A stretch of 58,990 nucleotides of DNA, counting the filler, from Sphacelaria rigidula (lineage: Eukaryota), in NCBI GenBank assembly GCA_964200075.2. It is 8 parts of 8 records of this genome, joined end to end, with 100 filler letters (N's around TTAATTAATTAA, not from the genome) between each part and the next. Parts side by side here need not be neighbours in the genome. Positions count along the whole stretch, not along the records: positions 44,320 to 51,605 come from CAXNAA020015629.1; positions 51,706 to 58,990 come from CAXNAA020015630.1; 6 more parts are not named here. One strand, written 5' to 3'. The translations under genes were made by a program, and so were the position numbers. How positions within the stretch are numbered: the stretch's first letter is position 1; the number at the start of each line of letters is the position of its first letter. The notes below the pieces were generated by a model, which was given only the letters and a program-made list of their open reading frames with translations, was not told the DNA's origin and ran no database searches. Positions 7,288 to 58,990 of the stretch are shown piece after piece.

Positions 7288-7387
7288 NNNNNNNNNNNNN
7301 NNNNNNNNNNNNNNNNNNNNNNNNNNNNNNNTTAATTAATTAANNNNNNNNNNNNNNNNNNNNNNNNNNNNNNNNNNNNNNNNNNNN
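7288..7387. other. Artificial contig spacer (44 N + TTAATTAATTAA + 44 N); identical spacers at 14675-14774, 22062-22161, 29448-29547, 36834-36933, 44220-44319 and 51606-51705
   Basis: Identical 100-nt spacer about every 7386 bp with an all-frame stop linker. Contig lengths fall 7287, 7287, 7287, 7286, 7286, 7286, 7286, 7285. Confidence 0.98.
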
Positions 7388-15881: not shown

Positions 15882-18255
15882 ATGGCGCAAACGAAAGTGA
15901 GCAAGGAGTCTAACTCTGACAAGGAGGGGGACGACGAAGAGGTGAAGTTCAATGTGACGGATTTGATTGCGGGGGGATCGCTCAAGGCGCCGAGTATGGG
16001 CGCTTGTTCAGTTAGCAAGCATCGCGACGGTTTCTGCAGAAATATCAGGAGTACGAACAAGCTGTTCTGCGACGAAACAAGACTCGAACTGTAAAGAGGG
16101 CACTCTTAACCATGAAAGAGCTAGTGCCTCGGCATGTACAAGATTGTTTGTTGGACACTGTTTTTTATGGCACTGAGATCTCTAACGCCCGGATTAGGGA
16201 AGGGATCGCACGGCATGCGAAATGCTGGGTAGGAATGGAAATGGATCCACTGAGGCCGCAGCCGGTGTAAAAAAGGCACTTGCTGCACGATCCGATTCAA
16301 CTGCCATGCGTCGAGTGGAAGGACAGAGGGGTGCCTTGCAAGAATATTTCAAGGAAAATAAGGGTGCAGAGCGTGTTTTCCGCGAAATGGACCGTACCTA
16401 TAAACCAGGCCCGGCACACATAATCACTAAAGCCATGATTGCCGGCCTGACCCCTCCGGAATTCAAAACTAAAGTCCAAAACAAACTGCAAATGACGGGG
16501 GGGTGGAAAGAGCAACCGAAACTTGTATACGATGTCGCTCGTGAGGTGGCGGAACTGTGGTGAACTGCCGAGGAGGTTGATAAGCAGCCCAGATCCGCTC
16601 CACAGAACAAGGAGGTGGGTTCGCAAGGACAGAAGAAACTGTCGACGGCAGCTAGCGGGTCGAAATCCAGAAAATCTCGCAGACCCAGCCCTGATTACGC
16701 AGGATGCTTCGAGTGTGGGGACAAAGGTCATTTTAGGAAAGACTGTAAGAACAAAAACAAGCCTGCAGCTACCGGAGGTGGGGATGGCGGACACGTAAAG
16801 CCGTAGCAACAACAACAGCAAAGGGCGCAAGCTCCGCGGGGCGGGAGCCAGGGTCCTACCCCTACCCGGGCTGTTTTTCCAGAGGATGGTCGTCAAAGGG
16901 GCACCAACGGTGCTGATCGTACGTTGCAGCCCGTGCCGACTGTTCCGGCTTCTACAGTACAGCCTCCGCCGTCGACAGAAACAGTTCAGCAATGGACATC
17001 GGCGGCAGTGCCGGCGTGGCGGGGCTTACACACTGCTTGCGAGGTGGCAGAGCTGGAGGCCGAGGGTTTGGACGTGGAGAATAGGCAGCAATGCTGCCGA
17101 GCTGATCTGTCTGTCCCAGGTTCCGCCGTACAGACAGTCTGTCCGGTCAAGGCTGTGTTGGACTCTGGAGCTAGAATAACCATTGTGTCTGAACGCGTGG
17201 CGACCCAGTCGGAAAACGCATTTCCTGGAGTATCAATTGTCACATCAATGGCAGGTGGACATCCGGGAAGGCTGGCTGACGGCAACGTAAAAAACATGCA
17301 CTCCAAAACGTGTCTGGTTCGTACGGCACTCCACACGAGCTGGGGGCCGGTGGTGCTTGAGCCCTGCCGGTATGCGATTATGCCCGGCGCTGATGATGTG
17401 GTTATTATCGGGAGCAAAATTCTGGCGAGAATCGGCATCAATATCTACAATGACCGGGGCGCATGCGCGCAAGCAGAACACCCTTTTTCGCGGGGTATCG
17501 AGACGCCTGAGTTCCGCGAGTGCGTGTGAGTCTCGCGGTGGGGGAGCTCCAAGAGACGACCGGTCGCGAGGAACCGGTGGATTCATCTGCCGGGCGATTG
17601 GTGTCACGGGGTCCGGATATGTTTATGCCACCAGAGCAAGAGCTTGTTGAGCGCAAAGTGGCGCTTGAGGAGGCGGTGCAAGCTGCGGCGGATATTGGCA
17701 TGTCGGAGAACGGGGTGAGCAAGCTCCCGAGAAATTGTTGGCCGTCGGACCAATGATTTTCGATGAGCGTTGCGAGGTGACCCACCTGCTCGCGTGGAGC
17801 CGTTGCAGGTACGCTACAAACTGGGGGCTAAAGCAGTCAAGGCGAGCCCGAGAACATACTCTCCAGTGAAGAAGAGCTGGTTAACAGGGTGCATGACTAC
17901 GCTGGTGGTGCTGGGGTTGGTATTCCGCAATATCCAGGCGGTGTGGGCAGGCGCAGCTATGGCTGCGCCCAAGAAGGGCAGCTATCGTCTGGTAAGTGAT
18001 TACAGAGCAATCAACAGGCAGCTCGAGAAGATTCCCAGTGTTATGCCGAACCATGAGACGGAAATGGCCGATTTGTGGGGTTCATCGTGTTTTGGGAAGC
18101 TTGACATGCTACAGGGGTACAGGCAGATGCCGCTAGCGGCTGAAGCCCGGAACATTTTCACCATTGTGACTCCCGACGGACTTTTCACCCCCACGAGGGT
18201 GCCGCAAGGCATACTTAACGCTACCGGATATTTTCAACAAATGATGATGGGACTC
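15882..18255 (+). mobile_element. Ty3/Gypsy retrotransposon 1: degenerate gag, protease and N-terminal half of RT
   Basis: CCHC knuckle CFECGDKGHFRKDC (16705), protease AVLDSGA (about 17152), RT YRLVSDYRAIN, KLDMLQGY, PQGILNATGYFQ. Multiple stops; truncated before YxDD. Confidence 0.92.
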
Positions 18256-21200
18256 CTTCAAACTGACTTGATCCGCCCCTGTAAGGATACATGTCAATGT
18301 TGTGGCATTTGGTTTCATGACCATACTGGGTATACCGCGACCGATTGCGTACCCATATATTTGATGCGCACCTGTGAGAAGCTTTTCACAAACGCGTTCG
18401 GTGTGCTCAAATTATTTCCTTTGAAACAAATCCTCACAATACAGGCGTATGCGTTAAAACCGTCGCCCTCAACATCGCGATTCGCGCGGTTCAAACAACC
18501 ACCCCCGATTTGATATTGTGAACACGGTAGAGATCACAGCAATCTCAACCCACAGTGCAATCAGTCGTATTTTTAGGCTCGGGCGCAAAGGCTTTCGGCC
18601 CAAGCTTACCCATATCTCATTCTGACGCCTTTCACCCGTATGCACAGGATCATTCACAAGATGGCACACGCCCCCTTGTGATTGGACCTCGCACAACGGT
18701 TGAGCCCCGCCAGATTGATTTCTGTCCCTCCACTGATGCTACACGCGCCACTTGACAATGTTTTGGGAATTACCAACCCCGCGTTTTGAAATAAGCATAC
18801 AGTAGGGCGATTCAGAGTGTACCACTGCCTCAAAATTAGGCCGTCGTTCTCTGCCCATTTTGAATACACTTCGCGTTCATTCCTAAATGTCTGCCACAGG
18901 ACCACATTAGGGCACTAACGATTGGAAGTCTCCCCCCCCCCCTTTTTCTTTCGCTCGGCCAGTAGATACACATCACAGAACAGAATCAATGTCGTACGGC
19001 ACAGGTTCAGGTTTGTGGTGCGGGTACACTAGGCTCGATTAGACTATCATGATACGTTCCATGGCAACAGAATCCCGTGCATCGTTGCATGACTCCCAAT
19101 TGCGCAATGACCAACCCCAGTGTTTTGAATCTAGAGCTGACTACCTAGTTTTACCTCCAAGTGGTATGATTCAGAGCCAGTTGGGTAATTTCTCCTTGCG
19201 GGATCGGCAGTCATGTAGTGTAACATCTCCCGCCCCTGAAGCAGGTACATCTTTTGTCACGGTAGCTGTTACACCTTCGACAGTTCATCGTAGGATAAAA
19301 AAATCAAGGCCACACACCAGCCCCCTACCAGGCTTAGGTGCCAAGTCGACCCCTGTTACACCCACGAACGACATGACGTCGGTGCCCGGTCCCCTTTTAT
19401 TTGGCGAGCGTCATTATTCTAGCACTGAGCGCAACCGTGTCGAACCCGGCTTTCCGTCGCTCAGCGGGTTGGGAAGGAGCCCCAAGCACAGCGCCAGTGG
19501 AGCGCCACAAGCGTGACCGAGGGCGGACTGTCCTTGACCAATTCCCAATAGCCCCTGGACCAGCCGAACCTTTGGTGCACTCTACGCATCACCCTCGGCG
19601 GGCTCCTCCGGATGACCCTGTAGATATCCCTGATGACACAGTTGCACCCGTCCACCGAAGTCGTGAACGGGTGTGGATTTCATTGAATGAAGGTGATACT
19701 GGCGACCAGGCCCGTGTTTCCCACATTTCGAACAGATCAACACTGCTCCCTGCCGACCCCTCACATACTATGTTAGAACCCACCACTAAAATAGCGTTGT
19801 CATCTCTTGGATCAGATACCTCGCTGCTGATTGGGTGTTCGCCTCCTTGTCATGAAAAAAACCCGTCTGAGGCTTCATAAGAAAAATATAGCGTAGTGAC
19901 CGACGAGCCGTCCACACCTGACCGCTCGTCCCCTGTTCTACCAATGTTGCCCCCAACTAACACGGGTAGCGAGTTGACTTGAGTGTAGCCAAATCGCCTT
20001 CACCCTTTGCCGAAACGTCCCCTCGCCGAAACGTCCCCTTGTTTGCCCGTACGAGATGCTGTACCCTTGCCAGCTTCGCAAACTGACGCTTCGCTACTTG
20101 TTTCGGCCGACCAAGGTATCTCGAACCAAACGCAGCAGTTGTCGCGGCCAGCTACGTACAGTTGTCGCGGCCAGCCGCGACAACTGCCCGTCCCAGGCAT
20201 CGTCCATCCATACAGTATACGAAACTCAACACTCGACAGATTCCCCAATACTGCAATAGAGACTCCGTGCCCCAACCCACCTTCGGACAGAAATCTTGCT
20301 CCGAAGGATCATCAGCGTGTGTATTTCAGCGCAGTCGCTCACAATCACAAGCACGGTTTGTTCACAGATTTCTTGCCAGAATCTGGATTGTCACTATTCA
20401 GCAGAACTGCAATCATGGATGATGCCTCCCTTCACAACGAAAATAGTACGTCAGCTAACCACCAACTTGTGATGGACCCGCAATCTAAAGAACGGACGGC
20501 GTGTTGTACACCGTCAGGCTTACGAATGGCTGGTAACACCACAAGGTGCCGCCAGCGCCCCTGAGGCGTTTTAACGTGTGATGTTTTTGTGAGTGATGGA
20601 TTCTCCAAGTGCCATGTGTACCCCGACGATGCGGTATTACACGGTAGCACACTTCCGAACATGCCGAGCACTTGGCGTCTTTCTTCCCTCGCTTCGAGCA
20701 GCACAACTTAAAACTTGCCCCGTCCAAATCCCGCGTTTGGAGCGACCAGCATCGAATTCCTAAGCCACTGTATCCCTCCTGATGGTCATTGTCCAAACCT
20801 CAACAAGGTTGCCGCACTTACAGATATGGCCATTCCGCGGGATACATCTCAACTGCGCTCCTTGCTCGGCGGTTTGAGCTGCTACCGACAGTATTTGCCG
20901 AACCTAGCTCAAATCTTCGAACCTCTCACCTCCCTTCTCAAGAAAATCAGGAGTGCAATTCGCGTTTACGTCGGAAATGAAGAAAACAGTACGTCAACTG
21001 CTTGACACACTTTCGCGACCACCAATCTTGATTTTCCTACACTGGTCGGCCGCTGAAAATGGTTCACGTTCGTTCCGACTTTATACGGATTCCTTCAAAT
21101 TTGTCACGTTGGAGAAGGAATAACCAGATGCTAAAAATCGCCTCAATGTATATTGGAGTCGAATCACCTACCCAAACGAACAAAACTGGTTGGTCATGGA

Positions 21201-22000
21201 GCAAGAGGGCCGGCGCGATTGTTTGGGGAGTGAGACGTCTCCGTCAGTTCTTGTTTGACATTTCGTTCGTGATTTATACAGATCATAAGTCTTCGGAAAA
21301 CCTCGCAAAAATGGCGGAATACAACGCCCGGGTTCAACGCTGGTATGAAATCCTGTCTTCTTACAACTTCACGCTGAAGTATCGAACAGGACCTCAAAAC
21401 GCAAACGCTGGTTTTCTGTCTCGCTTGCCCATCCCGGTCCAACCCATCGACAGCTCCGCCTTGGGACGTATCACGGATCCCACCGAAGACATTGTATTTT
21501 TCATTAGCAGAACCGGTCACAGCGGAATCTACACACCGTTCTCACTAAACAACAACTCGTCACTTGGCATGAATGGGCTGACGACTACAGCTCACGCTTC
21601 TGTACAAGGCAGTATGCCACCACAATCGTTGTGCTCAGTTTGGAGTGGAGCTAGTACAAACCCGAGCGGGTATGATCATTTCGGTGCAACTGGTCATCGT
21701 ATGGTTTGTGCTGCAGACATAGAACCGTCTTGTGCTGACTTCGTCCTCCCCGTTCAAGTGCGAAATCTTATCTCGAGTAGAACCTGGGGACGGCGGGCCG
21801 CCGAAACGACCGCCACCCTAGCGGCCTCTGGCCCGGACCTTCCCATTCCAAGCCCCATCCCGGTGCCCGATCCTTTCCCAGCCCGCCCTCAACCACCGCG
21901 GCGCAAGGCCCCCACACGATCGACTTCATCCACGGCACCCCTTCCTCCCATAACCGAGGCCTCGGCTTTGTCCCCCTTCCCCGGAGTGATGCTACGGTAG
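18256..22000 (+). mobile_element. Ty3/Gypsy retrotransposon 2: degenerate RT-RNase H, preceded by probable gag/protease remnants and a long linker
   Basis: KERTACCTPSGL, PQGAASAPEAF, VYPDD (20616-20630), IEFLSH, QLRSLLGGLSCYRQY, IYTDHKS, ARVQRW, YRTGPQNANAGFLSR. Integrase not seen before the contig end. Confidence 0.88.
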
Positions 22001-35030: not shown

Positions 35031-37990
35031 CTTGTGAGGGCGCGAGGGGTTCCGTGTCAGCTACGAATACGCTTCACGGCTTCCGGCGTTTACCGGTGGT
35101 CTAGGAATCCGATTATATCGTGAGATTCGATTTTGGTACAGGCATAAACAATGGAAAAAAATCGCATGTGCTGGACGTGCAAAAATAGCATACAAGGGTT
35201 ACAACACCACGAAAACGTGAAGAAGAGCTGTGACAACATGAACAAAAACGATCCATGAAAGAAAAAAATGTCGAAGAAATTAATACGCGCAGTACAGTGT
35301 ATACTTCGCAGGTGGTTGGTCCATTACGTTGAGCTTATGACTGCCCACGACTTTTGGGGATCTTTTCTACTACTACACAGGAGAATTGATTGATATGATT
35401 GATTGTCGCACTTTAACTGATCCACCAGAAGTCATGATCCAGTCGTGGTGTGGTCATTATCCATTATCCATAAAATAGACGTACCCGAGACAAAAAAAAC
35501 TGAAACACTCTCTGAAGAAAAGTAAGACAAGAAAAAAGATGTAGAACAGACAGAAAAAATAAAAGATATGTGCACTAAAATAACGTCAACATTGGCACAC
35601 GATTACCAGACGGGAAAAAATTCAAGGGCAGGTCGAGTAGAGTATACTCAATTGTGCGGTATTTTGAATGTCGTCCTTAAAGTACACAAATCGGGGGTAG
35701 GGTTTTAGGGATCGTTTTCCAGTGAATTTTTTGGGGTACGACTCCTGATACTCTACAGGGTGGTTCACGCTTATCACTAAAAAAATACTCATCGGCGAAA
35801 CTTCACGCCGTTTTAAGGAGTTAGACCCTGGAATTTTGCACGAATGCTCTGAGGGTCATTACGCAACTTTGCAGGAACGGTTTTTTTACTTAGGTTATTA
35901 CTTTTTCACCGCTTTTCGGGGGTCCCAGGTTTTTGGGGGAAACCTCGACCCAATCAGACTCCCGTACAATGGTAACAAAAATAAAAATAAAAAACCCGTT
36001 CCTGCAAGGTTGAGTAATGTCCCAAAGCACAGTTGTGCAAAATTTCAGGGTCTAACTCCTTAAAGCGGCGTGAACGTTTTGGTCTTTATGCGATAAAGTT
36101 TGTCGTGCCGCGGTGAAACCGCAAACTACTTGATTTTAGTACCAAAACGGCGTTTTTGAGCCTTCTTTGACGTGAACATCAAAATTCAAACATCAGTTGA
36201 TCGAGTTTTGCGACGAAAGTTTGTGGAGCCCATCCTTGCGTTATGCGGAGGCAGAGAGTTCGCGAAAAAATGAAAAAAAAAATCGTAGTGCCGTTTTCTG
36301 GGGTCTCGAAATGGAGACTACTCCGAAAAACGACTTCGATCCCGTCGGACCCCCGAAAAACGGTGAAAAACTCAACTAGTACAAAAAACATCGTCCGTAG
36401 AAAGTTGCGTGATGATACATAGCATATCTATGCCAAGTTTCAGGATCTAGCTCCTAATGACAGCGTGACAGTTTGCGCCTTGGTGCAGGACGTGGGCTTG
36501 AAACGTGCAACTCCTAACTACTTGATTTTAGTATCGAAACGTGCTTTTGAGGTGAACTTCACGTCAACGCCAGAAAAACTGTTGTATGAGGTTTTCGAGT
36601 TTCTTCACCAACATTTGTACATGTGCTTCTTGGACTCTCCCGGGACGAATCATCTCATTATTTTTCTTTTAGGACATTCTGTACCGCCTTCCGGGGGTCT
36701 TCACGCTGGGACCCCCGGAAGCCGGTACAGAACGGAGAAAACATGATATATTGTCCAGAATACAATTTTTCCGTTTGGAGCATCAATACCTACGAAACTA
36801 TCGAGTTTGAGGGCGATCTGAGCTTTTCTACAANNNNNNNNNNNNNNNNNNNNNNNNNNNNNNNNNNNNNNNNNNNNTTAATTAATTAANNNNNNNNNNN
36901 NNNNNNNNNNNNNNNNNNNNNNNNNNNNNNNNNTTTTTTCGTGCAACCAAATACCCCCCCCCCCCTATCGTAGGATGACTCGAGCGTAATGAACACTAGA
37001 ATACACATGTAAGCCGGATAAACAGTCTCAGGAACGGGGTCCGCCAATGACATAGATGAGCGGACTCGAAACGTTCAAACCTGTGGAACTGGATCTTCGG
37101 CAACCTAGGCAACGGGGTCTCCGGTAAAAGGGGCTCCTTGAACGTTGCCGGTACTGCCGTACCAGCTCGCTAAGTTGTTCTTCTTGCCTACCATCGGTCA
37201 CGGCCACATCCTTGCCTAGATGACAAGAGAGAATTACGCCTCGCTCTGGAGATCCTTCGGCAGCAGGGTACGACAACGTTCTCCTTCGGGACCCGTAACT
37301 CAACTGCCTCACCCCTGGTGAAGGCTAGTTCACGTACAGCATTATTCGTAGATAGGAATCGAGGAACAACGGGGTCATACTCGCGGAAATTGACGAGGCT
37401 CCTGGACGAATACATACTGTCGACACCTGAGCACTCAGCTCCATGCTCCCCCTAAACCATACCCTTGGTAGGCATTCGCTTTTATGAAGAGCGGGGCTGT
37501 CGCGCCCCGATGGTCGAACGGGGGTATCAGTGGCCAGTATGGGTGGAGTTCGTGGGGGTCGAAGAGCGACATATATGATCGAAATTGTTTCCTTCGTCAT
37601 GAGCTGCGTTACGTCACGTGTTCGGTTGAAGTCGGCGGGGTGAGGGAGTGCTAGTCCAACCCTCCAAAGCAGACACTGCAGGCCGGGCACCGGAGGAGAG
37701 ACGGGTTGATCCCATTATACTATAGACTCCTCGCGAGGAGGGCGACAGAACAGGAGTACTAAAAAAAAAAAGGAGACCGGGGCGAAGCACTGGTGAGTTC
37801 CCGAATGCCCAAGACGTGTCTGACTAATGTACGCGTTGCGGCTCGTACACGAACCGGCTCGAGTAGACCGGTGCGTTATAAAGTCGTTCGCTCTCACGAG
37901 GCATAAGTGCATTTGTGTTCAGCACCCCACACCCCTCCTCCAATCTTACGCTCACAGCTGATGTCGACATTTTCTGGCGCGCCAACTTAC

Positions 37991-39470
37991 CGTTGGTACC
38001 CGGCGCTAGCATGTACGCGTAGCCCGCGCCTCCGACGACCGTCAAGTAGTTGATGGGGGTCTCGATCACATCTAGGTGCATGTCCAGGCTGGCCACACCC
38101 AGGAAGTCACCACTAACTGGGTCGAAAACAGCGGCGGCGGTCGATATGCTCCAGACTTGGGACGTAGCGAACTGGTAGGGCTCGGTGAAGATGACCCCTC
38201 CCGCGCCGTCTCTCGCGTCTTGGTACCACACTCGACATCGAGGGTCGAATGTTTCGGGGGATGCGTCTCCGTATCCTGAGTACCGTTCATCGCAAGGCTG
38301 AAGCCGTTTCGAGTGTTTTCGCACCAAGTGGGTGGTCGGCAGTGATCGAAAGAGCGGTAGTGGTAGCGGGGGAAAGGGATGCGGAGTGCGGTAGTAAGTA
38401 TGTGATGAAAAGTGCTAGGCAGGTATTGATTGTTTAGTTGACTGGCGATGTATCAGGATGGAGTGGTGAGGAAAAGTTATTGGCTAGCCAAGGCTAAGTT
38501 GCTTCACACCAGTGAAAACACCGCCTGGCCATACACCTGCCTTGCGTTTCTACAATAATGTAGCCCAATATCTGTGTGCTCCCGCATACTTTGTTGTACT
38601 GAACCACCGAGCGCCCCCCCCCCGCCCCCTGAAGTGAACTCTAAGATAATCAGCCGTCGTTTTGTACCTCATTCCAGTTGGAGTAGGGTGTTACAGAGAG
38701 GTTCGAGCCGGGATATTGCTGCATATTCACATCAGGATCCTGGTCCACGCCGACATATACGAGCTCGTGTTGCCTCGACAGCCCGCGAAATAAGACGTCC
38801 ATTAACGCCGATCGATTTAGCATTCCTCCCAGTGGACTTCCGGGGGGAGGAACTTCATCAGGAGTCTTGTACCCGGTGATGTACCTGGAGGGTTGGGGGA
38901 GGGGGGACAGACAAGCTGGGTTCGGTGTTGGGAGCAGTGATGCAAGGGCAATGGCCGAGCGATTCGAAAGCCGTTTATTGCATGTGGCCATCCTAGCGGG
39001 CTGCTCGCCCTCGATAGTCGTCCAGATTAATTGATGCGTCTATCCCTCTTCTCCCTCGGCACCAAGAGCCCCCTTGAACATTTGTCCAACATGAAAAATC
39101 ACCGAACCATTGCCTGTCCCAGGTTCAACCTCTTGGGCGGTCACGGCACCACCACCGCATCCGCAACAGCGAATGTGGCCGACGTCGCCGCCTACAGTGA
39201 CCTGAATACTCCACCTAGCGATGGGGGTGGAGTTACGGAAGAGTACACGTTTCCATGTCAATATCTAACATCTCTCCTCACCATACACTGTGCTCCCACG
39301 TTTCTGACTCGGACTCGTTCAAGCCTCCGTTAGGTTGCACGTAGCCTTCAACTCCCATGGTGGTCGAGGATTCAGAGAGCACCTGTTCGCCGAAGGCTTG
39401 CAGCTGCAGCGTGCTTTCCTTGATGCGTTGAAACACCTCGGTCACGAAGTCGGCCTTATTCTGTGCCAGC
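37991..39470 (-). CDS. Cache (dCache-like) sensor-domain protein, internal exons 39470-39282, 38884-38668, 38297-37991
   Basis: Three exons with canonical AG/GT sites and compatible phases, no stops. FDPRCRVWYQDA...VIFTEPY...SISTAAAVFD...FLGVASLDM...GYAYML matches the Cache motif (YDPR.RPWY...W..PY...GV...D). Confidence 0.82.
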
Positions 39471-45740: not shown

Positions 45741-46624
45741 GGAAATAGCATCTTGAAAATATCCTACTCTTTCAAGATCATCTTCAATTAATAACATCAG
45801 TATAATGTTGAAAAGTTAACGAACAGTATACTCCAGTTGAACACGCCAAACCTTGACTAACTAATTCCAAAGGAGCTATAGATAGCAAATACATACACAC
45901 AAACTTGAAACTAGTGATACTACTGCTACGATGAGCTATCCATTCCTTGTTTAAACTAGTAACACTACTGCTACAGTAAGTTATCCACTCCGTGTCAGTC
46001 GTGCTTTCGTCATCGTCATTGTCTTGGTCTTGATTGCTTGAACAGTCACATCGGTATTGGTACAGTCAGAACCTGAGTAATTTTATTTAACAAACAACAC
46101 GCAAAAGTTACACAGAAAGAAGACACAGAGGGACTGACCCCCCCTTTCAAGCCTTCTTTCAGTCGTTGAAGTTCTTGATGAGAATCATGAGATATCGGAA
46201 CCTCTGAGTTGAAAGGAACTTTGTTCCGATGTCAGCTATTTGATTCTCTGTTTCAATGCAATGAGTTGTGATCTTCCCAGATTCCACCAACTCCCTCATG
46301 AAGAAAAAACGCAAGGCGACGTGTTTCGTCCTTCCGCTGAAAATACGGTTGGCAATCACTTGAAGAGTTGCTGTGTTGTCTAGGTAGATAGCTACAGTGT
46401 TGAACGATGATCCACATCGCATCTCAATAATCATATTCGAGCAGTAGACCGCCTCCTTGATGGCAAGCGCTCCGGCAACCCGTTCCACTTTCATGGTTGA
46501 TTGTGCAGTAAGTCCCTGCAGCCCGACTTTAAAGCTAACCGGGGCTTTCCGCCAGCATGCATCGAATCATAGCAGCCAGCGTCCCTCCATCGCGTTCGGA
46601 AATCCCAATCTGCTGAGGCGCGTT

Positions 46625-46871
46625 GTTGTTGTCTTCACATTTAAAAGCGTTCCGATATCTGCGCGGTACATTCGTACTGGGCATCTGATGCGGACGCCTT
46701 CCGTGGTCACAGGCTAGCAACAAAGAACAAAAAACACAAATAACAAAATAGACCCAGATTCAAAATGCACAAAACGCGATACAAGCAAAGCAGGAATATA
46801 TAATGAAGAAAGGGAGTAGATATGGCTAACCTCGGAAGATCCGGTGCCGCAGGTGGCGATTCGGACTTCAG
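46625..46871 (-). mobile_element. 5'-truncated LINE 3' end with (AAC)n tail, inserted in the copia integrase
   Basis: Splits VEFAAT|NAPQQIG. Ends ...AATGTGAAGAC(AAC)n. The same 3' end occurs at 58926-58990. Confidence 0.8.
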
Positions 46872-48932
46872 GGTGGCAGCAAACTCAACGCGAACTCCAG
46901 AGTTCGAACAATATGTGCGAAACTCGTTTCCTGTGTACTCCCCTCCTTTGTCAGCACGAAGTCGCTTGGCCCGGGCTCCACGTGGGATCACTTCCGTTTG
47001 GGTGAAAGTCTGGAATGTCTTCAGAGCATTGCCCTTTGACTGCGTGAGATGAACGTACTTGGATCGCGTCAGAAAGTCCGTCAACTTGCTCATGTATTCA
47101 AATCCCCCAATTGCTTCTGGGGTAATCGGTGCCATCATATCACCAGTTATTAGTTCGTACGGACGAGATACTTTGTAGACGGCAGTCTTGGGGTGAGCCT
47201 GTTATTTACTTTTGCTCAACGCACACATATCGCACGGAGAAAGATTACCCGTGAAAATCACCCCATTCCCGTCTATGCCTCGTATTGTGTGAAGTGTCTT
47301 GCTCGACACGTGTCCGAGGCGCCGGTGCCACAATTCTGCGTCCGCTGTTGTTAACATCGCCACTGTATTTTTTGTTTCCCCTTCGGCTGAAGCCACCTGC
47401 TTTCCTGTACCCGCGCCGACCGCACGATCCACGCGTATGATGAATGTGTATAGACCGTGGTCATGGAGTGACTGTTTCAGTTGGAAAGACGCGACTTCCA
47501 AGCGTGAATTCGCCGGGTCGAACACGACGTTGATTCCTCTTGTGACAGCGTTCTTGACGGAGAACAAGTGGTGCCCCAGACCTGGAACTACACAAGATGG
47601 GAGACATACTTCGTGAGAGACTCCATATTGGTCTGTCACCTTTCCTAGGACCGTAACTGAAGCTGCAGCATTCAACACATGTCCTCCGGCCGCAGTTGTT
47701 TGGAAGGGATTGGGTAAAATTGTGTAGTCGGGAAAAGTCTCCAGTAAGCCAGGATTCAAAGAGTTGTCAACAAAGTTGTCGGTTTTCCCGCTGTCGACCA
47801 GTAGCGAGAGTACAGTGTCAGAAGCCAGCAAAGCTACACCCATAGTGGGATGTATCGTTCTACATTCCGTGGCTTCCCCAATCGCTACATATATCCGACC
47901 GTCCCCGGCGGGTGGCACTCCAGGCTGAATCGGTCTCCCAGCAGCTGGGTATCCTGTTGCTGTAGCACCAGCCGTTGGTTGCGGCTGGTGTGCGGGTGCA
48001 CCGATGACTGCGTTAGAAGGGTACGCCGCCATATGCGCGTAGTGCGCCACACCAGCAGCGGCATTCTCTTTTCGAATGCGGCAGTCAGCATCGTTATGAG
48101 TTTTGGAACAATGATGAGAACACCACTTCGCCGTCTTTTCGTTACCGTTGGTATTATTGGTGCCTGACTTACCCCCTTTTTTCTTCTTCCCTCTACATTG
48201 CAATTTGGAACGCCAGTCTCTAAATGTGGCAATGTCATCCCTGTCAAAGACGTCCAGCAGGCGCATTGCCTGTGTAACACCTTCCTTCGCCTCGGTCATG
48301 TTTGCTTTCGGGACGTATAACTTGTGCCCAAAGAAGCGCACTTCGGTCAGTGTGCTGACCAAGTCACAACTCGTACAATAGCCAGGTGTACTGTGCTGGA
48401 ATCCGCAAACACAAAAAGTCAATGTGATGCTCCAGTGATGAAACCGCACGCCGTTCAGTGTGCGAACTCAACACACTACTTGTGCTGTATACACGAGCGG
48501 ACGTCGGTCTGTGCTTACCCGAAGCACTACTCGTACTGTATAGACGAGATGTAGACACCTGCATACCAGCTAGGTGTACGGTACTGGGAACTGCAAACTC
48601 ACAACGTCGATGAGATGCTCCCAGTGCTGAACTCCGAACGTCGGCTTTTTTTTTATGCCGATAATGAAAACTCAGAAGCAAGAAACCGCTGAAAACCGGG
48701 CGATACGCCGCAACTGTTCGTTTCCGTCGTTCCTTTGCACAACCCAGCCAGTTTGACCTACGGGTGTGCAGCTTAGCTTGAAGTCGAGATGATCAGTCCC
48801 CAACAAAAGCCGAAGGTGACTCAACTCACGTGGATATCCCGGTACAAGCGCCCGAGATGCGTTGATCCTGGTCCAAGCGCCTTAAAGGGAGTAGAGAACG
48901 TCTTCCTCAAAACTCCCAAAGATACTCGAAAA

Positions 48933-51490: not shown

Positions 51491-54400
51491 TTCCCTCGTA
51501 TGAAGAGAAAGAAATGATCGGCCTTCCGTCGCTCATATCGCATCAAAGATGAGACCCACTTTCATGACAGGCACGAATCTCGATTTTTTCGAAATCGGGG
51601 GGGGGNNNNNNNNNNNNNNNNNNNNNNNNNNNNNNNNNNNNNNNNNNNNTTAATTAATTAANNNNNNNNNNNNNNNNNNNNNNNNNNNNNNNNNNNNNNN
51701 NNNNNGTTCGTAACAGGTGGGGGGGGCTGTTAGAGTGTGTGCGGGGGAACATGCGGCGCTTGGGGTGGGGGGGGGGGGGGGGGGGGGGGGGCTACGTGTT
51801 CGGCAAATTATTTTTGACTGCCGCTTGGGTTACGTATGAAAATAGAAGTGTGAAGGAATGTTAATACTGTACCTCTCGGTGAGGGGCGTTACAGAAAAGG
51901 GTGTTATACGCAGTTTGCTGCTCGCAGCGACGGTGCTTTTGTTTGGCATTCACCTGGTAAATATCTTCAACGATGCACTGCGATGTGTGAAAGAAAAGAA
52001 GGAATGTTGTGAAAACGAGTATGGTGCTGCTGAGAATTGAAGAAGGAGATGCGGAATTACAAGAGATACAGACAGCAACAGGTAGAAGGTGGTTAAAAAT
52101 TTGTATACGGAAAAGACACAAGAAAAGCCGAAAGTAAAGAGAGCGGAAGTGACCAGCTAATCGACGTGGAGAATAACACGAACAGCTCGCACAAAACAAA
52201 ACGCATCCCCAAAGATAGTTCGCCCATCAAAGCAAAAGCAAAAAGACGTAAGGAAAGGATGGGATTGCAGAAGAAGACATTTACTACCAACTACCCCGTA
52301 GCCGGCAACAACGACTCATACACAACGTTATGGACTATAGCATGCCCTTCCTCATCTATTCGACCAGGCGTAGTCAATATTACAAAATCGGCAGCCCGGC
52401 ATACGCGGCTGCAGGCCACATATGCGTGACCGTGCGCAAAGGGATGGCGTGTCAAATCCAAAGCAGCTTTACCCAAAGTCATTCCTTGTGCTCGATGGCA
52501 GGTTGTGGCAAACCACAGCTTAACGGGAAATTGAACGCGTTATACGGCAATGCCCTGCGACGTAATAAACTTGAACGAAATTCTCGGAATAAAATGGAGT
52601 GTACCGGTGTCTAGAGTCCGAACCTGCAGGGTATAGGGCTTGATGTCTACAACAACAACCTTGGTGCCATTGGTCAAACGGTGGTCAATGGACATATTTC
52701 GACACAGCATAACCACTACACCCCTTTTCAGTTTGATGATGTGGGCCGGAACACCAGAGGGCTGCAACAAACTCAAGTACTCAGATATTCAAAAGACGTC
52801 ATCTGTATCACCCTCAAAATGTTCGTGATCAAGGATCGTTCTACCTTCCAACGTATGGGCAACTCCCGGGAATCTCGATAACACGGACGCGTTGATATCG
52901 TCGACGGCGTCGTTATGCAAGCTGATAATGCTCCGCTTGGAGCAGGCCCCCGAGTCGACGAAATCGATTGCTTTTTCTACGCTCTGAACAGTTCGAACAC
53001 CGGTAATGGGTGTGAAACCATGTTCGTCGACGGGGGCCACACCATCTCCTAGGTCATCGACCATTTTACTGAATTCGGGGTCGTTCCAATTCCTCATCGT
53101 TCTAGTGAGGCGACAGAGCTTGACTCTATCACGATAGAAGGAGTTGGACAGCACGGAAGCGGCGCAGCTCTCGGGTTCCCCCCGTTGACGACGACAGGCG
53201 CCAGCTGTCTGGTGTCACCGGCGAGGACGACGGCTTTGTTTCCAAACCCTACGCGATGGTGGGAATACAAAAGCGAGAAGGACGGTTTGATAATGCATCG
53301 AAAGTATTCAAAGAAACAAAGAGGTGAAAAACACGGGATAAAAAGACATACCATGGGTAATAGATGTCGCCAAGACATGACTCAGAATGGTGTGTCGGAA
53401 AATGTGAATCCGAAGAAGCTTGACACGAACATGTTTCACCTGGTGTGGTGTTTGCTGCCGCGACGTCGGGCGACGGGAAATATGTTGGTTGCTCATCTGC
53501 ACGAAAAATTTGAGGAGCAGAAGAAAAACGGAAGGAAAGTCGGTTGGAGTGGCAAAGTTAGCGCGAATATGGGATGGTGCAAGGTGGAATGTGGGAGGAT
53601 GAATGAGGATGTAAAGACTTGTAAGTTGTGGGGGAATAATGCAGGATGTGATGCGCGATGAAAGGAGAGAGGCTGTGCAAAAGGTGAAGCACCGCCGAAT
53701 TCTCACCGTGGTATCCGTGGTGTTGTTGAATCCGGAACATGTGTTCGACACCTTCTTCGTCTGTAGCACTGGTGGAGGTATCTTGAAAAACGGGAAGAAG
53801 GATTGTAAAGTGCGATAGGCATAAGGATAAGGAGAGATGTCGTGAAGGGGAAGGCGCGAAAGAGAAAACGCTACACTATATGAAGGAAAACAAGTATTTG
53901 GACAATAGACAATGGTAAAGATAGAGAACAGCAAATTCTGCGAATTGAGGTTTGACTCTGAGATGAGGCTCACGTGGGCAACCCGACCTGCGAACTGTTT
54001 GTAGCAGAATCATCTTGTGGACAAACCAGCGGCTTGACTCCAAAAAGACGGCAACAACAGCATTCCCCTCTCGACTCGATCGTTCCGGTGTTGGGTGCAG
54101 ATCTCTCCACACAGCCGATGGCGCTGCAAGATATGGTTGCATCGAGCTTCGAATGCTGCTGCAGTATACGGTGTGTAGAGCTGTTCGTTGAAGGGACGCT
54201 TGATGCTCGGAGGTTGGCGTTGGAGCAAGAGGACCTCAGTCGTGTCGTCGCGGGCAAAGCAAGACTGGCTTGGGTTCGAGGGCACGTGCCGTATCAAAAA
54301 CCCGGTAAGAACATGGGATCGATGCATGCTTCCGACGGCGTGGTTTGTAATCGTTTCTTCGCTCGAGCCTATGGGGTGTCGAAGAACCTCGTTGAGAACG

Positions 54401-55132
54401 CGTCGAAGAACCCGGGTGCTCCATCGGTGTCGAGAACCACGTGAGTATGATCGCCACGATTGAGTAGATGTGTACAGCAGGATCCTTGTTTCCACCGCGA
54501 CCTCTTATCATGACTGATTCCGCATTGTATTTTAATTCAGGAGCCCAATTTTTTCGAATCGGCTGCCCGTCACGGGTGTTTTCAAACAAGACGAAGCCTT
54601 CACGCGTGGTACCGGAGTGCAGGCAGAAGTACACAGCAGTGACAAACGCACAGTAAACGAAGTTAAGCCTTCACCTTTAGTACCGTAGTGCAGGCAATAT
54701 TCAGTAGTCATACCCTCTGTTTCTGTATCCACTGCCATGGACGTGCATCTGCATGTGACCTCGAACCCTACAGTACAGTGAAAGCGGTATATCGTGATTG
54801 TGGCGAGTCATCGCACACCCCCTCGACCGAATTTCAAAGCTCGACTACTTCACAACAAGAAGAGCATCAGTACTGACAACGAGTACAGATTAAAACTGTG
54901 CCGTGTTTGCGAAGCATAGCCTATGCTTGTCATGTCGTACTGTTTACAAAACCCGCGGCCTGTAGTGTGAATACTATGTATTGTACCCGTCATCTCGAGA
55001 AAAAAATCTCATCGACGGTGCCACCGGATGATGGAAGATCAAAGTGGGTGTTTTCCGTCGTGCTCAACATTGACTCGTGCTGGCTGGACTTCGATACTCC
55101 GTCGGTACCCTTTGCGTTTATCTCTGTTGTAT

Positions 55133-55185
55133 GCCGGTCGCCCCGGTGGCTCAGTTGGTAACCTCGAAACCCTCTAACGGTTGAG
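55133..55185 (+). mobile_element. Head-only fragment of SINE family A
   Basis: GCCGGTCGCCCCGGTGGCTCAGTTGGTAACCTCGAAACC matches the head at 8977-8925. Confidence 0.7.
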
Positions 55186-55539
55186 CAGCTGATCCAAAAA
55201 ATGAAGGCTCCCGAATTAAAAAACAAACGCAGGATCGGTCATGATGAAGGGTCACGGTGAAACTAAGGATCCGCCTATATAGGTGGATATACTTTTTGCG
55301 CTCAAAACCGGTCAAGGACTTTCCTGTACTGTTGTCTATGCATATGCCCTACATTCTCATGGTCATGACAAGAGGCGTGTGATCTTATGGCGAAAGAATG
55401 ATTCTGAATCTCGAACATGGCAAGGTGCAACCCAGTCTGCATGCGGTTTTATATGCGACATAGACCCGTGGAATACCTCTGAGGTCAAAATTTATTGCTC
55501 AACTGGGTTTCTCACCGTGATGCACCCGGAAGACCCTAG

Positions 55540-55909
55540 TCGTGAGATCCAGAGGGCAGTATCAGATTCGGAGTGGATGCTCTAGCGCTCCCAACAGGAT
55601 ACTTTTACTTGTTTTTTTGCTTGAGCACACGTGCACAGGCACCGCAGGTAAGGTACCGTACCGAGCGTACCCCCGGTATTTACCGGGGTATCCCATACCG
55701 TGGTATGCGTAGGTACCGTAGGTATGAGTTTTGAAAATACCGGATTGGGCCGGTGCGGTAGGTATTGAAATCTCGAAATACCCTGGTATCATAGGCATCG
55801 TAGGTAGCACAATATTCGTGAGATTCAGAGGGTAGTTTCAGATTCAGAGTGGATGCTCTAGCGTTCGTAACAGGCAATTTATTTTCCTTTTTTTGCTTGA
55901 GCACACGTG
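55540..55909 (+). repeat. Direct repeats of about 93 bp (55540-55633 and 55817-55909) flanking a GGTA/TACC-rich segment
   Basis: CGTGAGAT.CAGAGGG.AGT.TCAGATTC.GAGTGGATGCTCTAGCG...TTGCTTGAGCACACGTGC occurs twice. Confidence 0.85.
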
Positions 55910-58900
55910 CTGTGCATGCAGCTACCGTACAGTAACCCATTCGAGGATTCCGGCAGTCTGGTTAGTGAGATACCGCACGAAGCATTTTTACACCTGGGGG
56001 GCATTTCGGAACTGAAACTATTGCAGGCACTAATCGGTTTTTCCTGAAAGAGGGGATCTTCTGTTGCAATGGGCTGACTATGTAGTTGCGATCAAGTGAT
56101 GTGTCAAAATGATCTTGTAGGTGATAGCTTTCATTGAAGCTTACACGTTGTCTTGGCGGAAACCCTCTTCCAGAGCCGCGTATCAACAGCCGACCGTTTT
56201 TCTCATCATTTACCTAACTTATTTTTAGTTCGGTATTTCGGATATGTTTCGTTTATCGTGTGTATGTTGATCTGAATTTATGAGCTATGTTTGTGTTTTT
56301 AATATATGTGGTTACTTCATGCCTCCTGAGCGGGTGTTTCTGTACCTCCTTCAATCCCGAGTTCGTCTTTCACGGGACCACGGCTTGAGGCACGTGGTTT
56401 GTCCCAATGGTAGATACAACGCTCGAGATATTCCTCATCAATCTTACGATGCGGACCTCCCCTCGACCGTTACAGTTGGTGACTCTAGACCGTCAGCGCC
56501 TGGCTTTCATCAGTCAGGTTGCCATTCGAGCGAAGGCCAATCAGGAGCCATTGAAATTCGTGTCTCTACAAGCCGATGCAGCAGTTCAAACGGTGTTCGC
56601 TCTACCTATGTGCTCTCCAGTGACGCATGGCACAGACAGGTGAGTACGAACGACAAATGACCGTGCATTCGACGGTGTCCCCCTTTGGTTAGCGCCTCCA
56701 ACACTCGCGTCACACCCGCGGTCATTGCGCTGGTGAATACTCGCTCGCGCGTGCGTCGACGTCGATGTAGACTGTATCGTGTCTGATACGACTCCACGGC
56801 TATGCACGATGCGCGGTGTGGCGACTGACAGGGGATATGCCGAACGCAAAGACATCATGGCAGTTCTCGTGGAGGGACAGTTCGTGGAGTTCTTCCTGGC
56901 ACCTCAGACCGTCGGAGGCGGTGAGTTCGAGTACGGTGCTCGTGTTATGCAGTCGCCGAATTATACCGTGAGGCGATCGCCGGCATGATTCGTTCGCATC
57001 TCGATTTTCATATAGCGTAGTATCGCCGCCCACCCAATTCGAAGTAAGTAACTGTTCATCTGCCGTAGAGGTAGTTATCCAAGTATGAACAGAACTATGT
57101 GCCAGCGGTTAGGGACTGCTGCCGAGATAGCCCCCCCCCCCAAACCGGCCAAAAACGTGCACGGAGGCGATGATCATAACTGCCGTTAAAGCTGGTTTCG
57201 TGCCGCACGACGCGACTGATTTGGGCATTATAGCTGATTTCGGACTGCTACACGCCTCTTATGTGGGCGAAACTGCTGCAAACGAGCCCAATAGTGGGAT
57301 CGCAGCCGGTTCGTTGGATGGTGCCGTTGCACTTTTTGTGGGGGGGCTATCTCGGCATTAGTCGAGGACGGAATGGTGGGGGAAAAGTAAACGTATCGAC
57401 GCAGGAAGGGTGAAATGTACTGGAAAGACTCACCGTCAAAATCAGGTGATGGTGGAATGTCGAACATCTCCTCCATGTGTTGTTCCTCGCTTCGCCGGAA
57501 CATGTACCCTGTGGAAAAGATACGCAGGGTGACGGCGGAATTAGGAAAAAGGAAGAAAATGGAATACGAAGGAGATGTCAGGAATATGTTTTCGGTGTGA
57601 GGGAACTATTTCTGTGACAGAAGTTGGGTAGATGCCTCGTATCCCGCCATCTCACCGTCGATGTCGCCAGCGCCGTCGAGGGAGTAATTGTCGACAGGAC
57701 GTTGCAGTTCTACCGGCTGATGTGGTGGTTGTCGACGTCCGGCACAACGTTTCCTGTGTCCGCGCGCGCTCCAGCCTCGAATGCGGCGATGTGGAGCGAA
57801 GATATTTCGTCGATAGTACACAGCTTGGTGTTCGCCATAACTTGCGCGCGCGTCCCTCGGGCAAGGTTAGATTGCAGCAATCTGTCATCTCGTGGATCGG
57901 GCACTGGGACATCGAAAGCGCGATGACAAGTGGTGCCGAAAGTCTGGTTCAAGGCTGCCAAACCGTTGGATGCTGTAGGCGCCGTGAGGTGACCGTTCAA
58001 GCGGGCTTGAGCACCTATGGCGTTGAGGAGGAGGGTCTTGCCGCATCTTGCTCGACCTTGTATGTCGAAAGGAGCGCCGCCCGGGTTCTTGCAAGCGTGG
58101 ATCACCTCATGGAATATTTGACGCTGTTCGACCGTGAACATTTGCAATGCCTCCGTGACGGTGGCGACATCAGCGTTCTTCTGGTACTCAATAAACTGCC
58201 TCGTTTGAGCACGACGTAGTTCCGAATCGGTGGTGTCGAACCCTTCCGGAACATTGATACCCAGTTGAGCGAGACTTTTGCAACCATCCGCATGTAAGTT
58301 CGCCTGGAGACACTGCAGGAGCTGCAACTTTTCGTCGCGTGGTGCCCTGCCACCGGTCGTCGATGAGGCTTTGGTAGAACTTGTCGAATGCGACAGCAAC
58401 CGGATAGTCGTTTCTGACGAGCAAAATGAAGAGTCGTCGTAGTTGTTTCGGTGAAGCGTTGCATTGTGTAGCTTCCTCCAAGGCATAGGTGGCTTCAGTG
58501 ATAAGCGGGTTGTCTAGGTGTCCGGCAGCAACGGCTGCGTCCTTCAACGTGTCGTGTTGGACGCCGTCGATCATGCGGGCTTCGTGGAAAGAGCGGGGTT
58601 TGGCGCCCTTTTTGAGCAGAAGTCATAAGAAGAAAACGTCGCCTTGAGAAACGTTGGGTGATCCTAAGAAATATATCTTGGAAGCCTAGACGGTACGGTG
58701 GTACGGCGAGGATGTCAGGAAGAAGTCAAGGTCTGGAGGTTTGGGTTTTTGACATACTTGGCACAAATAGTCGTCCATATCGTTGGCTGAAGGTTATTGA
58801 GGAAAACTGTGAGGGGTTTCGCGGCACAAACGTACTCACGTTCGGGGCAGGGCGTCTGCGGAAGACCTGGAGGCTGTTGGACTCGTCATCCCATGGTTTC

Positions 58901-58925
58901 TCCATCCAACGTTCGGTGGCGTACT

Positions 58926-58990
58926 GTTGTTGTTGTTGTTGTTGTCTTCACATTAAAAGCCGTTCCGATATCTGCGCGGTACATTGGTAC
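58926..58990 (-). mobile_element. LINE 3' end with (AAC)n tail interrupting the Helitron gene at the contig end
   Basis: (GTT)nGTCTTCACATTAAAAGCCGTTCCGATATCTGCGCGGTACATT, nearly identical to 46622-46675. Confidence 0.8.

Follow-up and report, generated by a model that had tools for sequence, protein, structure and literature searches.

A probable broken, high-copy DUF7869-family fragment inside a decayed helicase gene of the brown alga Sphacelaria rigidula

The locus described here, within a 58,990-nucleotide stretch of Sphacelaria rigidula DNA (the window), is by our estimate (roughly 85% probability) an ordinary case of nested mobile elements, in which a broken, high-copy fragment of the DUF7869 family lies within the gap of a decayed, Helitron-type helicase gene. 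In the history that we propose, a putative helicase intron (57433-53249), originally about 755 nt long, would have been enlarged by an insertion of about 3.4 kb of high-copy repeats. The main insert (53939-57113, plus strand) would be what is left of a DUF7869-family element after truncation and internal deletion, and its antisense placement in the helicase intron would be an insertion accident without function.

An interrupted helicase pseudogene

The helicase gene lies on the minus strand in two parts separated by a long gap:

52291-53248, minus strand: downstream part, with GFGNKAVVLAGDTRQLAPVV, the Pif1 2B domain and the C-terminal motif
53249-57433, minus strand: gap of 4185 nt, a putative GT..AG intron in phase 1, from sequence and frames
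57434-58622, minus strand: upstream part, with the N-terminal region, a Walker A block (GRARCGKT), IDEISSL and the short reading block 57434-57508

The putative Helitron label comes from a single feature, the Pif1 helicase; a Pif1-family helicase and a 2B domain are what the gene shares with Helitron Rep/Hel proteins. Pfam PIF1 was matched at 57710-58513 (profile positions 2-121, E = 8e-17) and, under the curated cut-off, at 53094-53381 (profile positions 132-162, E = 2e-4), the downstream part matched Pif1_2B_dom (E = 1.5e-11), and the reading frame 58191-58622 had no Pfam match. In contrast to Helitron Rep/Hel proteins, the window gene is a pseudogene, is single-copy at at least 90% identity and has no Rep (HUH) domain in the window, which stops at 58990, upstream of the helicase and within or before the expected Rep region. 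Besides the helicase, a Helitron is marked by a Rep (HUH) endonuclease encoded upstream of it and by 5'-TC...CTRR-3' ends. This helicase copy is dead. Three-frame translation showed that the downstream part shifts frame near 53150 and contains two in-frame stops, one at 52789-52791 and the other at 52540-52542, and frame translation of the upstream part gave at least one additional frame change; with two stops and several frame changes, the gene is now under no selection.

An earlier note on this DNA had joined the helicase exons in phase over the 4185-nt GT-AG gap, and sequence and frames agree with this. On the minus strand, the upstream block ends ...TTT GAC G and is followed by GTGAGT, so that the last coding base before the gap is 57434, while the downstream block starts at 53248 after ...CGCGTAG and reads GG TTT GGA AAC AAA. 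The joined reading, ...PDFD-G-FGNKAVVLAGDTRQLAPVV, restores a Pif1 motif. Alternatively, the gap may be no intron at all, the GT..AG borders and the in-phase join being coincidence or remnants in a dead helicase gene split by insertions. We consider this a minority reading that deserves some weight: the stops and frame changes of the helicase fit it, as do the single-copy flanks, for which X1 (a DNA-like run) offers no helicase relative of at least 90% identity for comparison, and the lack of a Pfam match in two frames between the PIF1 blocks (57231-57605, which holds the 57434-57508 block, and 57606-57866). However, the join falls exactly at the start of the conserved FG(G/N)K..V..GD..QL.PV motif with the phase restored, and in X1, single-copy, non-coding sequence and not repeat makes up about 755 nt of the gap (53249-53938 and 57369-57433).

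The remainder of the gap consists of inserted repeats. In contigs of X1, in which summed contig depth does not equal copy number, the helicase flanks (51710-53896 and 57542-58990) had a depth of 3.7-17, while the block between them (53897-57541) had a depth of 4,039-253,282, and exact single-copy contigs end at 53968 and restart at 57339. With the single-copy flanks at a depth of 10-15 and positions 53939-57368 at 4,000-250,000, the block is a high-copy insertion, and since its depth in X1 exceeds that of the flanks by a factor of hundreds to thousands, it is present at many places without this helicase. Its sequence in the window is 5-10% divergent from the other copies aligned to it. Three smaller repeats lie within the block or at its edge:

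55134-55183, plus strand: tRNA-like head of a SINE-like repeat of very high copy number, shortened in the window copy
55537-55910, plus strand: a pair of 98-nt direct repeats (84% identity) flanking a unit of about 160 nt at 55646-55806 (repeat family D1)
57114-57363, no strand assigned: MITE-like element whose 31-nt terminal inverted repeats are 84% complementary (inverted repeat I1)

Hundreds of contigs carry unrelated sequence before the 55133/55134 boundary, and in other copies of the SINE-like repeat, T-arm-like sequence continues past 55183; ARAGORN called no tRNA for it. The 55646-55806 unit has a very high copy number: it reaches a depth of about 250,000 in X1 and takes up entire short contigs in X6-X8. 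The MITE-like element bounds the repeat block on the right (X1 depth of about 180,000).

Helitrons capture gene fragments, and captured pieces are often incomplete, as this one is; the DUF7869 exons might thus be cargo acquired and carried by the Helitron, as the earlier note had allowed when it described them as inserted in or carried by such an element. The depth difference in X1 makes this very improbable, and in addition, the block sits within a gap of the helicase reading frame, not in the non-coding part of an element, and its edges are other repeats. Insertion is the half of that description that stands.

Exons of a DUF7869-family gene

The main insert contains three exon-like blocks on the plus strand, antisense to the helicase:

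53939-57113, plus strand: high-copy DUF7869-family fragment with exons 1, 2 and 3, non-coding sequence and small nested repeats (X1 depth and protein matches)
53963-54440, plus strand: exon 1, ATG at 53963, with a Cys-rich helical domain (CC-x4-C ... VCNxFFxxAYGVS) and donor GTGAGT at 54441
56476-56639, plus strand: exon 2, acceptor ttacag ending at 56475 and donor GTGAGT at 56640
56640-56831, plus strand: 192-nt intron separating exons 2 and 3 (X7 contig and annotated proteins)
56832-56920, plus strand: exon 3, GYAERKDIMAVLVEGQFVEFFLAPQTVGG, start of the DUF7869 profile region by tblastn, donor GTGAGT at 56921

All of the peptides that had been quoted for these blocks (CCCSIRC, VCNRFFARAYGVS, LVTLDRQRL...VSLQADAAVQTVFALP and IMAVLVEG) are present, and each block is indeed followed by GTGAGT. 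The phases differ where exon 1 ends (2) and exon 2 begins (0), so these two cannot be joined directly, and the X7 and X8 contigs begin to align at 56473, with unaligned sequence upstream. Exons 2 and 3 join in phase at 56639|56832, the junction for which an RNA check had been proposed. All seven annotated brown-algal proteins that cover it read across, as GTD(K/R)GY... or GIDRGY..., and in one contig, 56636 and 56832 are separated by just three mismatched letters, which effectively gives 56639|56832. Among the joints listed, this intron-less form came from a single contig in one of the four runs aligned (X7, which has a second joint nearby), and the RNA status of X6-X8 is a guess made by the tool.

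Membership of the window exons in a DUF7869-family putative transposase gene is supported through close paralogues. The three matches to the exon-2 frame among 26 candidates are all Sphacelaria rigidula proteins, and the best of these, the annotated protein P0047 (91% identity, E = 3e-24), carries Pfam DUF7869 (PF25273) at 38 bits against a gathering cut-off of 26. Residues 75-155 of P0047 correspond to profile positions 12-87, and the protein extends into an exon missing here. A profile search of 7,999 candidates matched 4, which come from four further genera of brown algae; three score over the DUF7869 cut-off (E = 4e-32, 9e-31 and 5e-28) and one under it at 23.6 bits. DUF7869 bit scores were 112 for P0050, 107 for P0051, 98 for P0053, 98 for P0063 and 108 for P0061. 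In tblastn searches onto the window, P0047 gave E values of 4e-31 and 6e-16, P0050, P0051 and P0053 gave 1e-9 to 1e-16, and P0063 gave 6e-20, 4e-13 and 6e-10. The three reading frames of the window itself matched no Pfam family at E <= 1, since no more than profile positions of about 12-45 are left: compared with PF25273 proteins, the window keeps about the first fifth of the domain, exon 3 being the first part of the profile.

That the blocks represent one type of gene follows from P0063, a 935-amino-acid Ectocarpus protein carrying both the Cys-rich domain and DUF7869, with the profile of exon-1 relatives at residues 45-212 (E = 8e-61) and the DUF7869 match at residues 402-582 (E = 7e-28). 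Exon 1 is 38% identical to residues 91-205 of this protein (tblastn, E = 6e-20), and a database search with its frame gave 45 relatives at E <= 1e-3 (best 2e-27), none of them named. No convincing Pfam match was found for the brown-algal N-terminal Cys-rich domain in 34 members. Together with the match to P0047 and the QADAA motif in exon 2, these data bear out the proposed resemblance to the N-terminal Cys motif and Asp region of DUF7869-type proteins.

The window copy is dead. In exon 1, the frame appears to shift after about 8 codons (from MRLTWATR in frame 0 to ...ELFVAESS in frame 2), and by tblastn, the only regions of P0063 found in the window are residues 91-205, 333-389 and 387-419. 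Matches to residues 206-332 and 420-935, including the second and third conserved Asp, are absent; the one conserved Asp in the window is the first (GAT, 56575-56577, in QADAA of exon 2), and the exon after exon 3, which carries the second, is missing. The suspicion that the later, putatively catalytic residues were missing and the copy was dead was correct. It is hardly credible that the blocks instead encode a domesticated DUF7869 protein and form a functioning host gene, located antisense within the intron. Related copies are spliced and occur in runs guessed to be RNA, and relatives are annotated as protein coding in five genera, but here the early frame change, the phase conflict between exons 1 and 2, the loss of about 70% of the protein with two of the three conserved Asp residues, and a high-copy sequence lying 5-10% from the other copies all speak against function.

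Taken alone, the locus is an unremarkable ruin of nested transposons. For its annotation, this means masking and not a gene call.

The case for a transposase

An intact gene of the family, as exemplified by P0063, is spliced and encodes four parts. The first is an N-terminal Cys-rich helical domain that is probably DNA binding and has a helix-turn-helix-like pair at its end; a middle region follows, then the core, in which three conserved Asp residues lie at intervals of 87 and 42 residues, and finally a C-terminal barrel-like domain. The DUF7869 protein would act as a cut-and-paste transposase, its N-terminal domain recognizing the element ends and the three Asp residues performing cleavage and strand transfer. 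The window copy retains only exon 1 and the two exons around the first Asp, with nested SINE-like and MITE-like repeats; it is unable to encode a transposase and, without recognizable ends, cannot be moved.

The three conserved Asp residues are putatively catalytic. Among 15 proteins examined, 7 had all three motifs (QADAA, VDNC..ENKN and GH(T/A)HIKID), and the spacing was 87/42 in six of these and 92/42 in the seventh (P0058). An AlphaFold2 model of P0051, of low confidence (pLDDT of 41 from a 7-row alignment), places the three Asp residues within an alternating run of strands and helices; with this model, Foldseek returned nothing at E <= 1e-3, its matches being noise, and a profile search of PDB sequences gave no matches. 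The exon-1 Cys-rich domain was modelled confidently (pLDDT of 90.9), ends in the helix-turn-helix-like pair and has no clear structural relative. For the left edge near 53939, no inverted-repeat partner lies anywhere before 57113, the copy being truncated, and as no terminal inverted repeats or target-site duplication can be defined for the DUF7869 element, transposition through a DNA intermediate is proposed by inference only.

The missing element ends, the lack of an established fold for the core and a Pfam entry that is only a domain of unknown function are compatible with DUF7869 proteins being something other than transposases, for example components of endogenous viral elements, or proteins that a larger element carries as accessories; in Ectocarpus, some DNA transposons are giant composites that include accessory genes, according to the part of the report consulted (PMC12477816). 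We nevertheless regard such a role as improbable, given the three conserved Asp residues at fixed spacing, their position in the strand and helix run of the low-confidence model, the helix-turn-helix-like end of the N-terminal domain and the high-copy, scattered nature of the family. Furthermore, DUF7869 clusters account for 26 of the 30 named Atlas clusters that lie nearest, and the three listed are entirely eukaryotic, with arthropods, molluscs and oomycetes as the commonest phyla, a spread expected of a mobile family.

Relation to known elements

Sola1, Sola2 and Sola3, Repbase superfamilies typified by a 4-bp target-site duplication, are eukaryotic DNA transposons encoding an Asp-triad transposase, and like them, DUF7869 elements are eukaryotic, would encode an enzyme of this kind and occur in brown algae. 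In Ectocarpus, Sola1-1_Ec32 is 21.5 kb with 1,989 copies, and Sola2-1_Ec32 is 4.6 kb with 48 copies (PMC12477816). As stated in the excerpt used of a 2017 paper, the Sola nuclease domains were then without a Pfam model (PMC5751038), and a later DUF entry could therefore cover a Sola domain. The term DUF7869 does not occur in the portions consulted of the Ectocarpus paper (PMC12477816) and four of its supplementary files, and no paper was found under "DUF7869" or "PF25273."

A spliced transposase gene is not special in brown algae, as the curated Ectocarpus library contains spliced genes for Tc1/mariner, Harbinger, piggyBac, hAT, EnSpm and KDZ (PMC12477816). Like the window gene, these are multi-exon with GT-AG introns, and unrelated nested insertions are common, as described in the sections of that paper drawn on here (PMC12477816). 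These families match known transposase superfamilies, whereas the DUF7869 family matches a domain of unknown function only.

It is conceivable, if rather doubtful, that DUF7869 elements constitute an undescribed eukaryotic cut-and-paste superfamily apart from Sola1-3, with a D(87)D(42)D core and a C-terminal barrel. The family could still be active in brown algae, as related copies are spliced, occur in runs guessed to be RNA and reach hundreds of times single-copy depth at at least 90% identity. The Tc1/mariner/pogo group has DD34-41D/E spacings, and the second Asp of DUF7869 stands in a D-N context with the third acidic residue 42 later, close to those spacings but a resemblance only; no sequence or profile similarity to that group was found, and Pfam gave DUF7869 alone at E <= 1.

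The DUF7869 family is abundant in a brown-algal genome and is annotated just as "unnamed protein product" in five genera. Defining the ends and the superfamily of its elements would close a gap in brown-algal repeat libraries and would tell whether Pfam DUF7869 is a Sola transposase or something new.

The host helicase gene and the repeats in its gap

Our results support the overall reading of the earlier note. A dead Helitron-like helicase gene has a putative intron, into which a spliced DUF7869-type (Pfam PF25273) transposase fragment, itself dead, was inserted. The window (58,990 nt) has a G+C content of 49.6%, and the helicase is recognised on its minus strand through three Pfam matches.

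Pfam matches of the host helicase
57710-58513, minus strand: PIF1, profile positions 2-121, E 8e-17
53094-53381, minus strand: PIF1, profile positions 132-162, E 2e-4, below the cut-off
52540-52788, minus strand: Pif1_2B_dom, E 1.5e-11

The helicase block at 57434-57508 (minus strand) ends with the codons ...TTT GAC G followed by GTGAGT, and the frame restarts at 53248 with GG TTT GGA AAC AAA after ...CGCGTAG. The in-phase helicase join across a 4185-nt GT-AG gap, as first proposed, is borne out with exact ends at 53249 and 57433: the phase is 1, and the joined product reads ...DFD-G-FGNKAVVLAGDTRQLAPVV. The host gene is itself dead. Three-frame translation of the minus strand reveals an in-frame stop in conserved helicase sequence at 52789-52791 (...DTDDVF*ISEYLSLLQPSGVP...) and a second at 52540-52542 (...SQGIAV*RVQFPVKLW...), and the frame switches between ...VVVNGGNP... 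and ...ESCAASVLSNSFY..., with more frame changes upstream. No Rep domain was found in the window, nor any match in a Pfam scan of 58191-58622, and the label Helitron is therefore a putative one, taken from the type of helicase; a PDB sequence search with the helicase frame gave no matches. The single-copy part of the gap also holds a 233-codon open frame on the minus strand (53311-54009) with no Pfam match, which we take to be due to chance since the plus strand is purine rich and minus-strand stops are therefore scarce.

It had been suggested that the transposase-like gene was either inserted in the Helitron or carried by it, and contig depth separates the two. Contigs of four public sequencing runs were aligned to 51710-58990 at a likeness of at least 90%. 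In X1, a run of unrecorded kind that behaves like DNA, the depth is 3.7-17 on the flanks (51710-53896 and 57542-58990) and 4,039-253,282 across 53897-57541; summed contig depth is not copy number, but a contrast of hundreds to thousands-fold means that the block is present at many places without this helicase. Exact X1 contigs span 52827-53968 and 57339-57899 and break at those points, which places the repeat block at about 53939-57368 after allowing for the assembler's 31-letter words. The contrast in depth shows that the block was inserted into the helicase gap and not carried by the helicase, so that the first suggestion stands and the second falls. The single-copy non-coding share of the gap, about 755 nt, is a plausible size for a brown-algal intron, and brown-algal genes are described as intron rich with splice sites almost exclusively GT-AG (10.1101/2024.02.19.579948).

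Smaller repeats within and beside the transposase fragment
55134-55183: tRNA-like SINE head, a small repeat inside the fragment
55537-55910: very-high-copy unit of about 160 nt together with the two 98-nt direct repeats that enclose it
57114-57363: MITE-like element with 31-nt inverted ends, beside the fragment

Scans of the window for tRNAs and against Rfam returned nothing. At its left end (53939-54009, ~70 nt, including the ATG), the DUF7869 fragment has a depth far above that of the rest of exon 1; a variant at 53973 was found in 21 contigs (depth of 44,540), and other copies diverge past 54009. This end may be retained by many short derivatives, and it may adjoin the true terminus of the DUF7869 element.

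Elsewhere in the window there are Copia-type pieces at 46162-48467 on the minus strand (GAG-pre-integrase, E 4e-8; integrase core, E 9e-7, below the cut-off) and retroelement pol pieces at 16807-21997 on the plus strand (a weak aspartyl protease; reverse transcriptase, E 3e-10; RT-linked RNase H, E 1e-11). A minus-strand frame at 37827-38414 has weak, subthreshold matches to Cache/PDC sensors (E 8e-7; 29 bits, cut-off 45) and may be an exon of a host gene. N runs of 44 nt occur in seven pairs, from 7288-7387 to 51606-51705 with a strict period of ~7,386 nt, and look like masking and not biology.

Splicing and family of the plus-strand blocks

The three plus-strand blocks described in the gap are confirmed, each followed by GTGAGT (at 54441, 56640, and 56921). 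Exons 2 (56476-56639) and 3 (56832-56920) are in phase with each other, linked through an Arg codon split AG/G, and the check called for at junction 56639/56832 came out in favor of splicing: all seven annotated proteins read straight across it (...THGTD(K/R)GYAERQ... or near variants), and one contig of X7, a run guessed to be RNA, lacks the intron. That contig (depth of 547) runs from 56636 to 56832 with only three letters between, mismatched against 56637-56639; this corresponds to the predicted junction in a copy that differs by about 7%. Another X7 contig has a joint from 56634 to 56827, and there was no comparable joint among those listed for X1, X6, and X8. Contigs of X7 and X8 (X8, like X6, being likewise guessed to be RNA) align from 56473 and leave 33 and 273 upstream letters unaligned, consistent with splicing of an upstream exon to the acceptor at 56475/56476. 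A candidate extra exon at 54542-~54630 was rejected: its phase fits after exon 1, but it has no similarity to either of two database proteins, P0063 and P0050.

A Pfam scan of the window's own three reading frames found no families, and the family assignment comes from relatives. Searching longer proteins with exon 2 identified three annotated Sphacelaria rigidula proteins (P0047, P0049, and P0048, with 91%, 80%, and 70% identity), of which P0047 passes Pfam DUF7869 (E 1.6e-9; 38 bits, cut-off 26). A profile of these proteins recovered a further four, longer ones, which come from Hapterophycus, Ascophyllum, Scytosiphon, and Ectocarpus; three pass the DUF7869 cut-off (E 4e-32, 9e-31, and 5e-28), and the fourth, a faulty gene model, scores 23.6 bits. 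Among the cluster members of these four was P0063, a 935-aa protein of Ectocarpus sp. 12; the exon-1 profile aligns to its residues 45-212 (E 8e-61), and the DUF7869 profile to its residues 402-582 (E 7e-28). With both matches in P0063, the Cys-rich domain and DUF7869 belong to a single protein, and the blocks in the window are hence exons of that type of gene, in agreement with the proposed resemblance to a DUF7869-type transposase gene. P0063 was the only one of nine long proteins tested to match the exon-1 profile; most of the other eight start downstream of the domain.

P0063 also has a conserved C-terminal block at ~780-870 (...PG(C/W)F(V/A)V(F/L)PLE(L/M)(S/T)N...VG(K/Q)IV...W(Y/F)(T/A)P...GVWS...), shared with P0050, P0052, P0053, and P0061 and absent from the window. 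Pfam gives only a faint SH3-like hint (E 0.59); the block may be a chromatin-targeting barrel domain. Residues 108-126 of P0052, a Scytosiphon model that apparently reads into the intron before exon 2, align weakly with 56407-56470, which may reflect intron sequence conserved between orders or chance.

The exon-1 frame (53962-54441) has 45 relatives at E of at most 1e-3 among 1.84 billion representative proteins, 24 of them at E of at most 1e-10 (best, 2e-27 with 48% identity). The relatives are all short proteins (60-292 aa), most of them matched up to or close to their C-terminus, as would be expected of single-exon gene calls on eukaryotic contigs; none of the 10 looked up has a name. Across the 34 rows of alignment A1 (the window copy and 33 relatives; the 12 omitted relatives, P0024, P0027-P0032, P0036, P0037, and P0043-P0045, are short or fragmentary), an invariant C-C-x4-C is shared, together with a fourth Cys and VCNxFFxxAFGVSxN. 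Pfam matches of the 34 members were to five families, one member each (E 0.0035-0.088), and were taken as noise. The A1 profile matched none of 8,000 candidate proteins of 512-2000 aa, and none of the 464 pattern stretches that a metagenome search with a single protein yielded was confirmed. With a degenerate DNA pattern for GxMxA....VC(N/T)xFF there were 23 metagenome loci, all of which looked like chance once translated; three of these match the A1 profile (E 2e-4 to 9e-4) and were discounted because the search pattern itself forces the motif. The Protein Atlas returned solely unnamed eukaryotic clusters for exon 1, a lead at best. The N-terminal domain is modelled with confidence (34 rows, pLDDT 90.9, pTM 0.82) as four helices and a hairpin, closing with a helix-turn-helix-like pair; there were no Foldseek matches at E of 1e-3 or below, the top rows being CRP/NtcA-type helix-turn-helix proteins (E of at least 2.4).

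The conserved core and its partial loss from the window

Fifteen proteins were examined for the motifs QADAA, VDNC..ENKN, and GH(T/A)HIKID; seven hold all three, spaced 87/42 in six and 92/42 in the seventh. The core would be RNase H-like, with three conserved Asp as putative catalytic residues, and the element would move by cut-and-paste, its N-terminal domain presumably binding the element's ends, perhaps with a metal bound by the four Cys. The AlphaFold2 core model (of P0051) was poor (pLDDT 41), and its Foldseek list (top E 0.075) was dismissed as noise; profile A4 matched no PDB sequences. DUF7869 clusters make up 26 of the 30 nearest named Atlas clusters, and the three listed contain eukaryotes only, most commonly of the phyla arthropods, molluscs, and oomycetes.

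The earlier suspicion that the copy is dead, with its later, putatively catalytic residues missing, proved correct. By tblastn, P0063 matches the window at exon 1 (residues 91-205, 38% identity), exon 2 (333-389, 56%), and exon 3 (387-419, 73%), and residues 206-332 and 420-935 have no match there; the second and third conserved Asp fall in the missing parts. At the start of exon 1, MRLTWATR and ...ELFVAESS lie in different frames at the place of M-x-L-T-x-A-x-R-L-L-F in relatives, which we take to be a frameshift. In addition, the phase is 2 at the end of exon 1 and 0 at the start of exon 2.

A curated Ectocarpus repeat library, with one family each of Sola-1 and Sola-2, has spliced transposase genes and nested insertions as the rule (PMC12477816). 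As of 2017, Pfam had no model of the Sola nuclease domains (PMC5751038), and DUF7869 could thus be one of them; the literature searched contained no mention of "DUF7869" or "PF25273". The locus is an ordinary one, in a repeat-rich brown-algal stretch; the DUF7869 family behind it is uncharacterised in print and merits a proper description.
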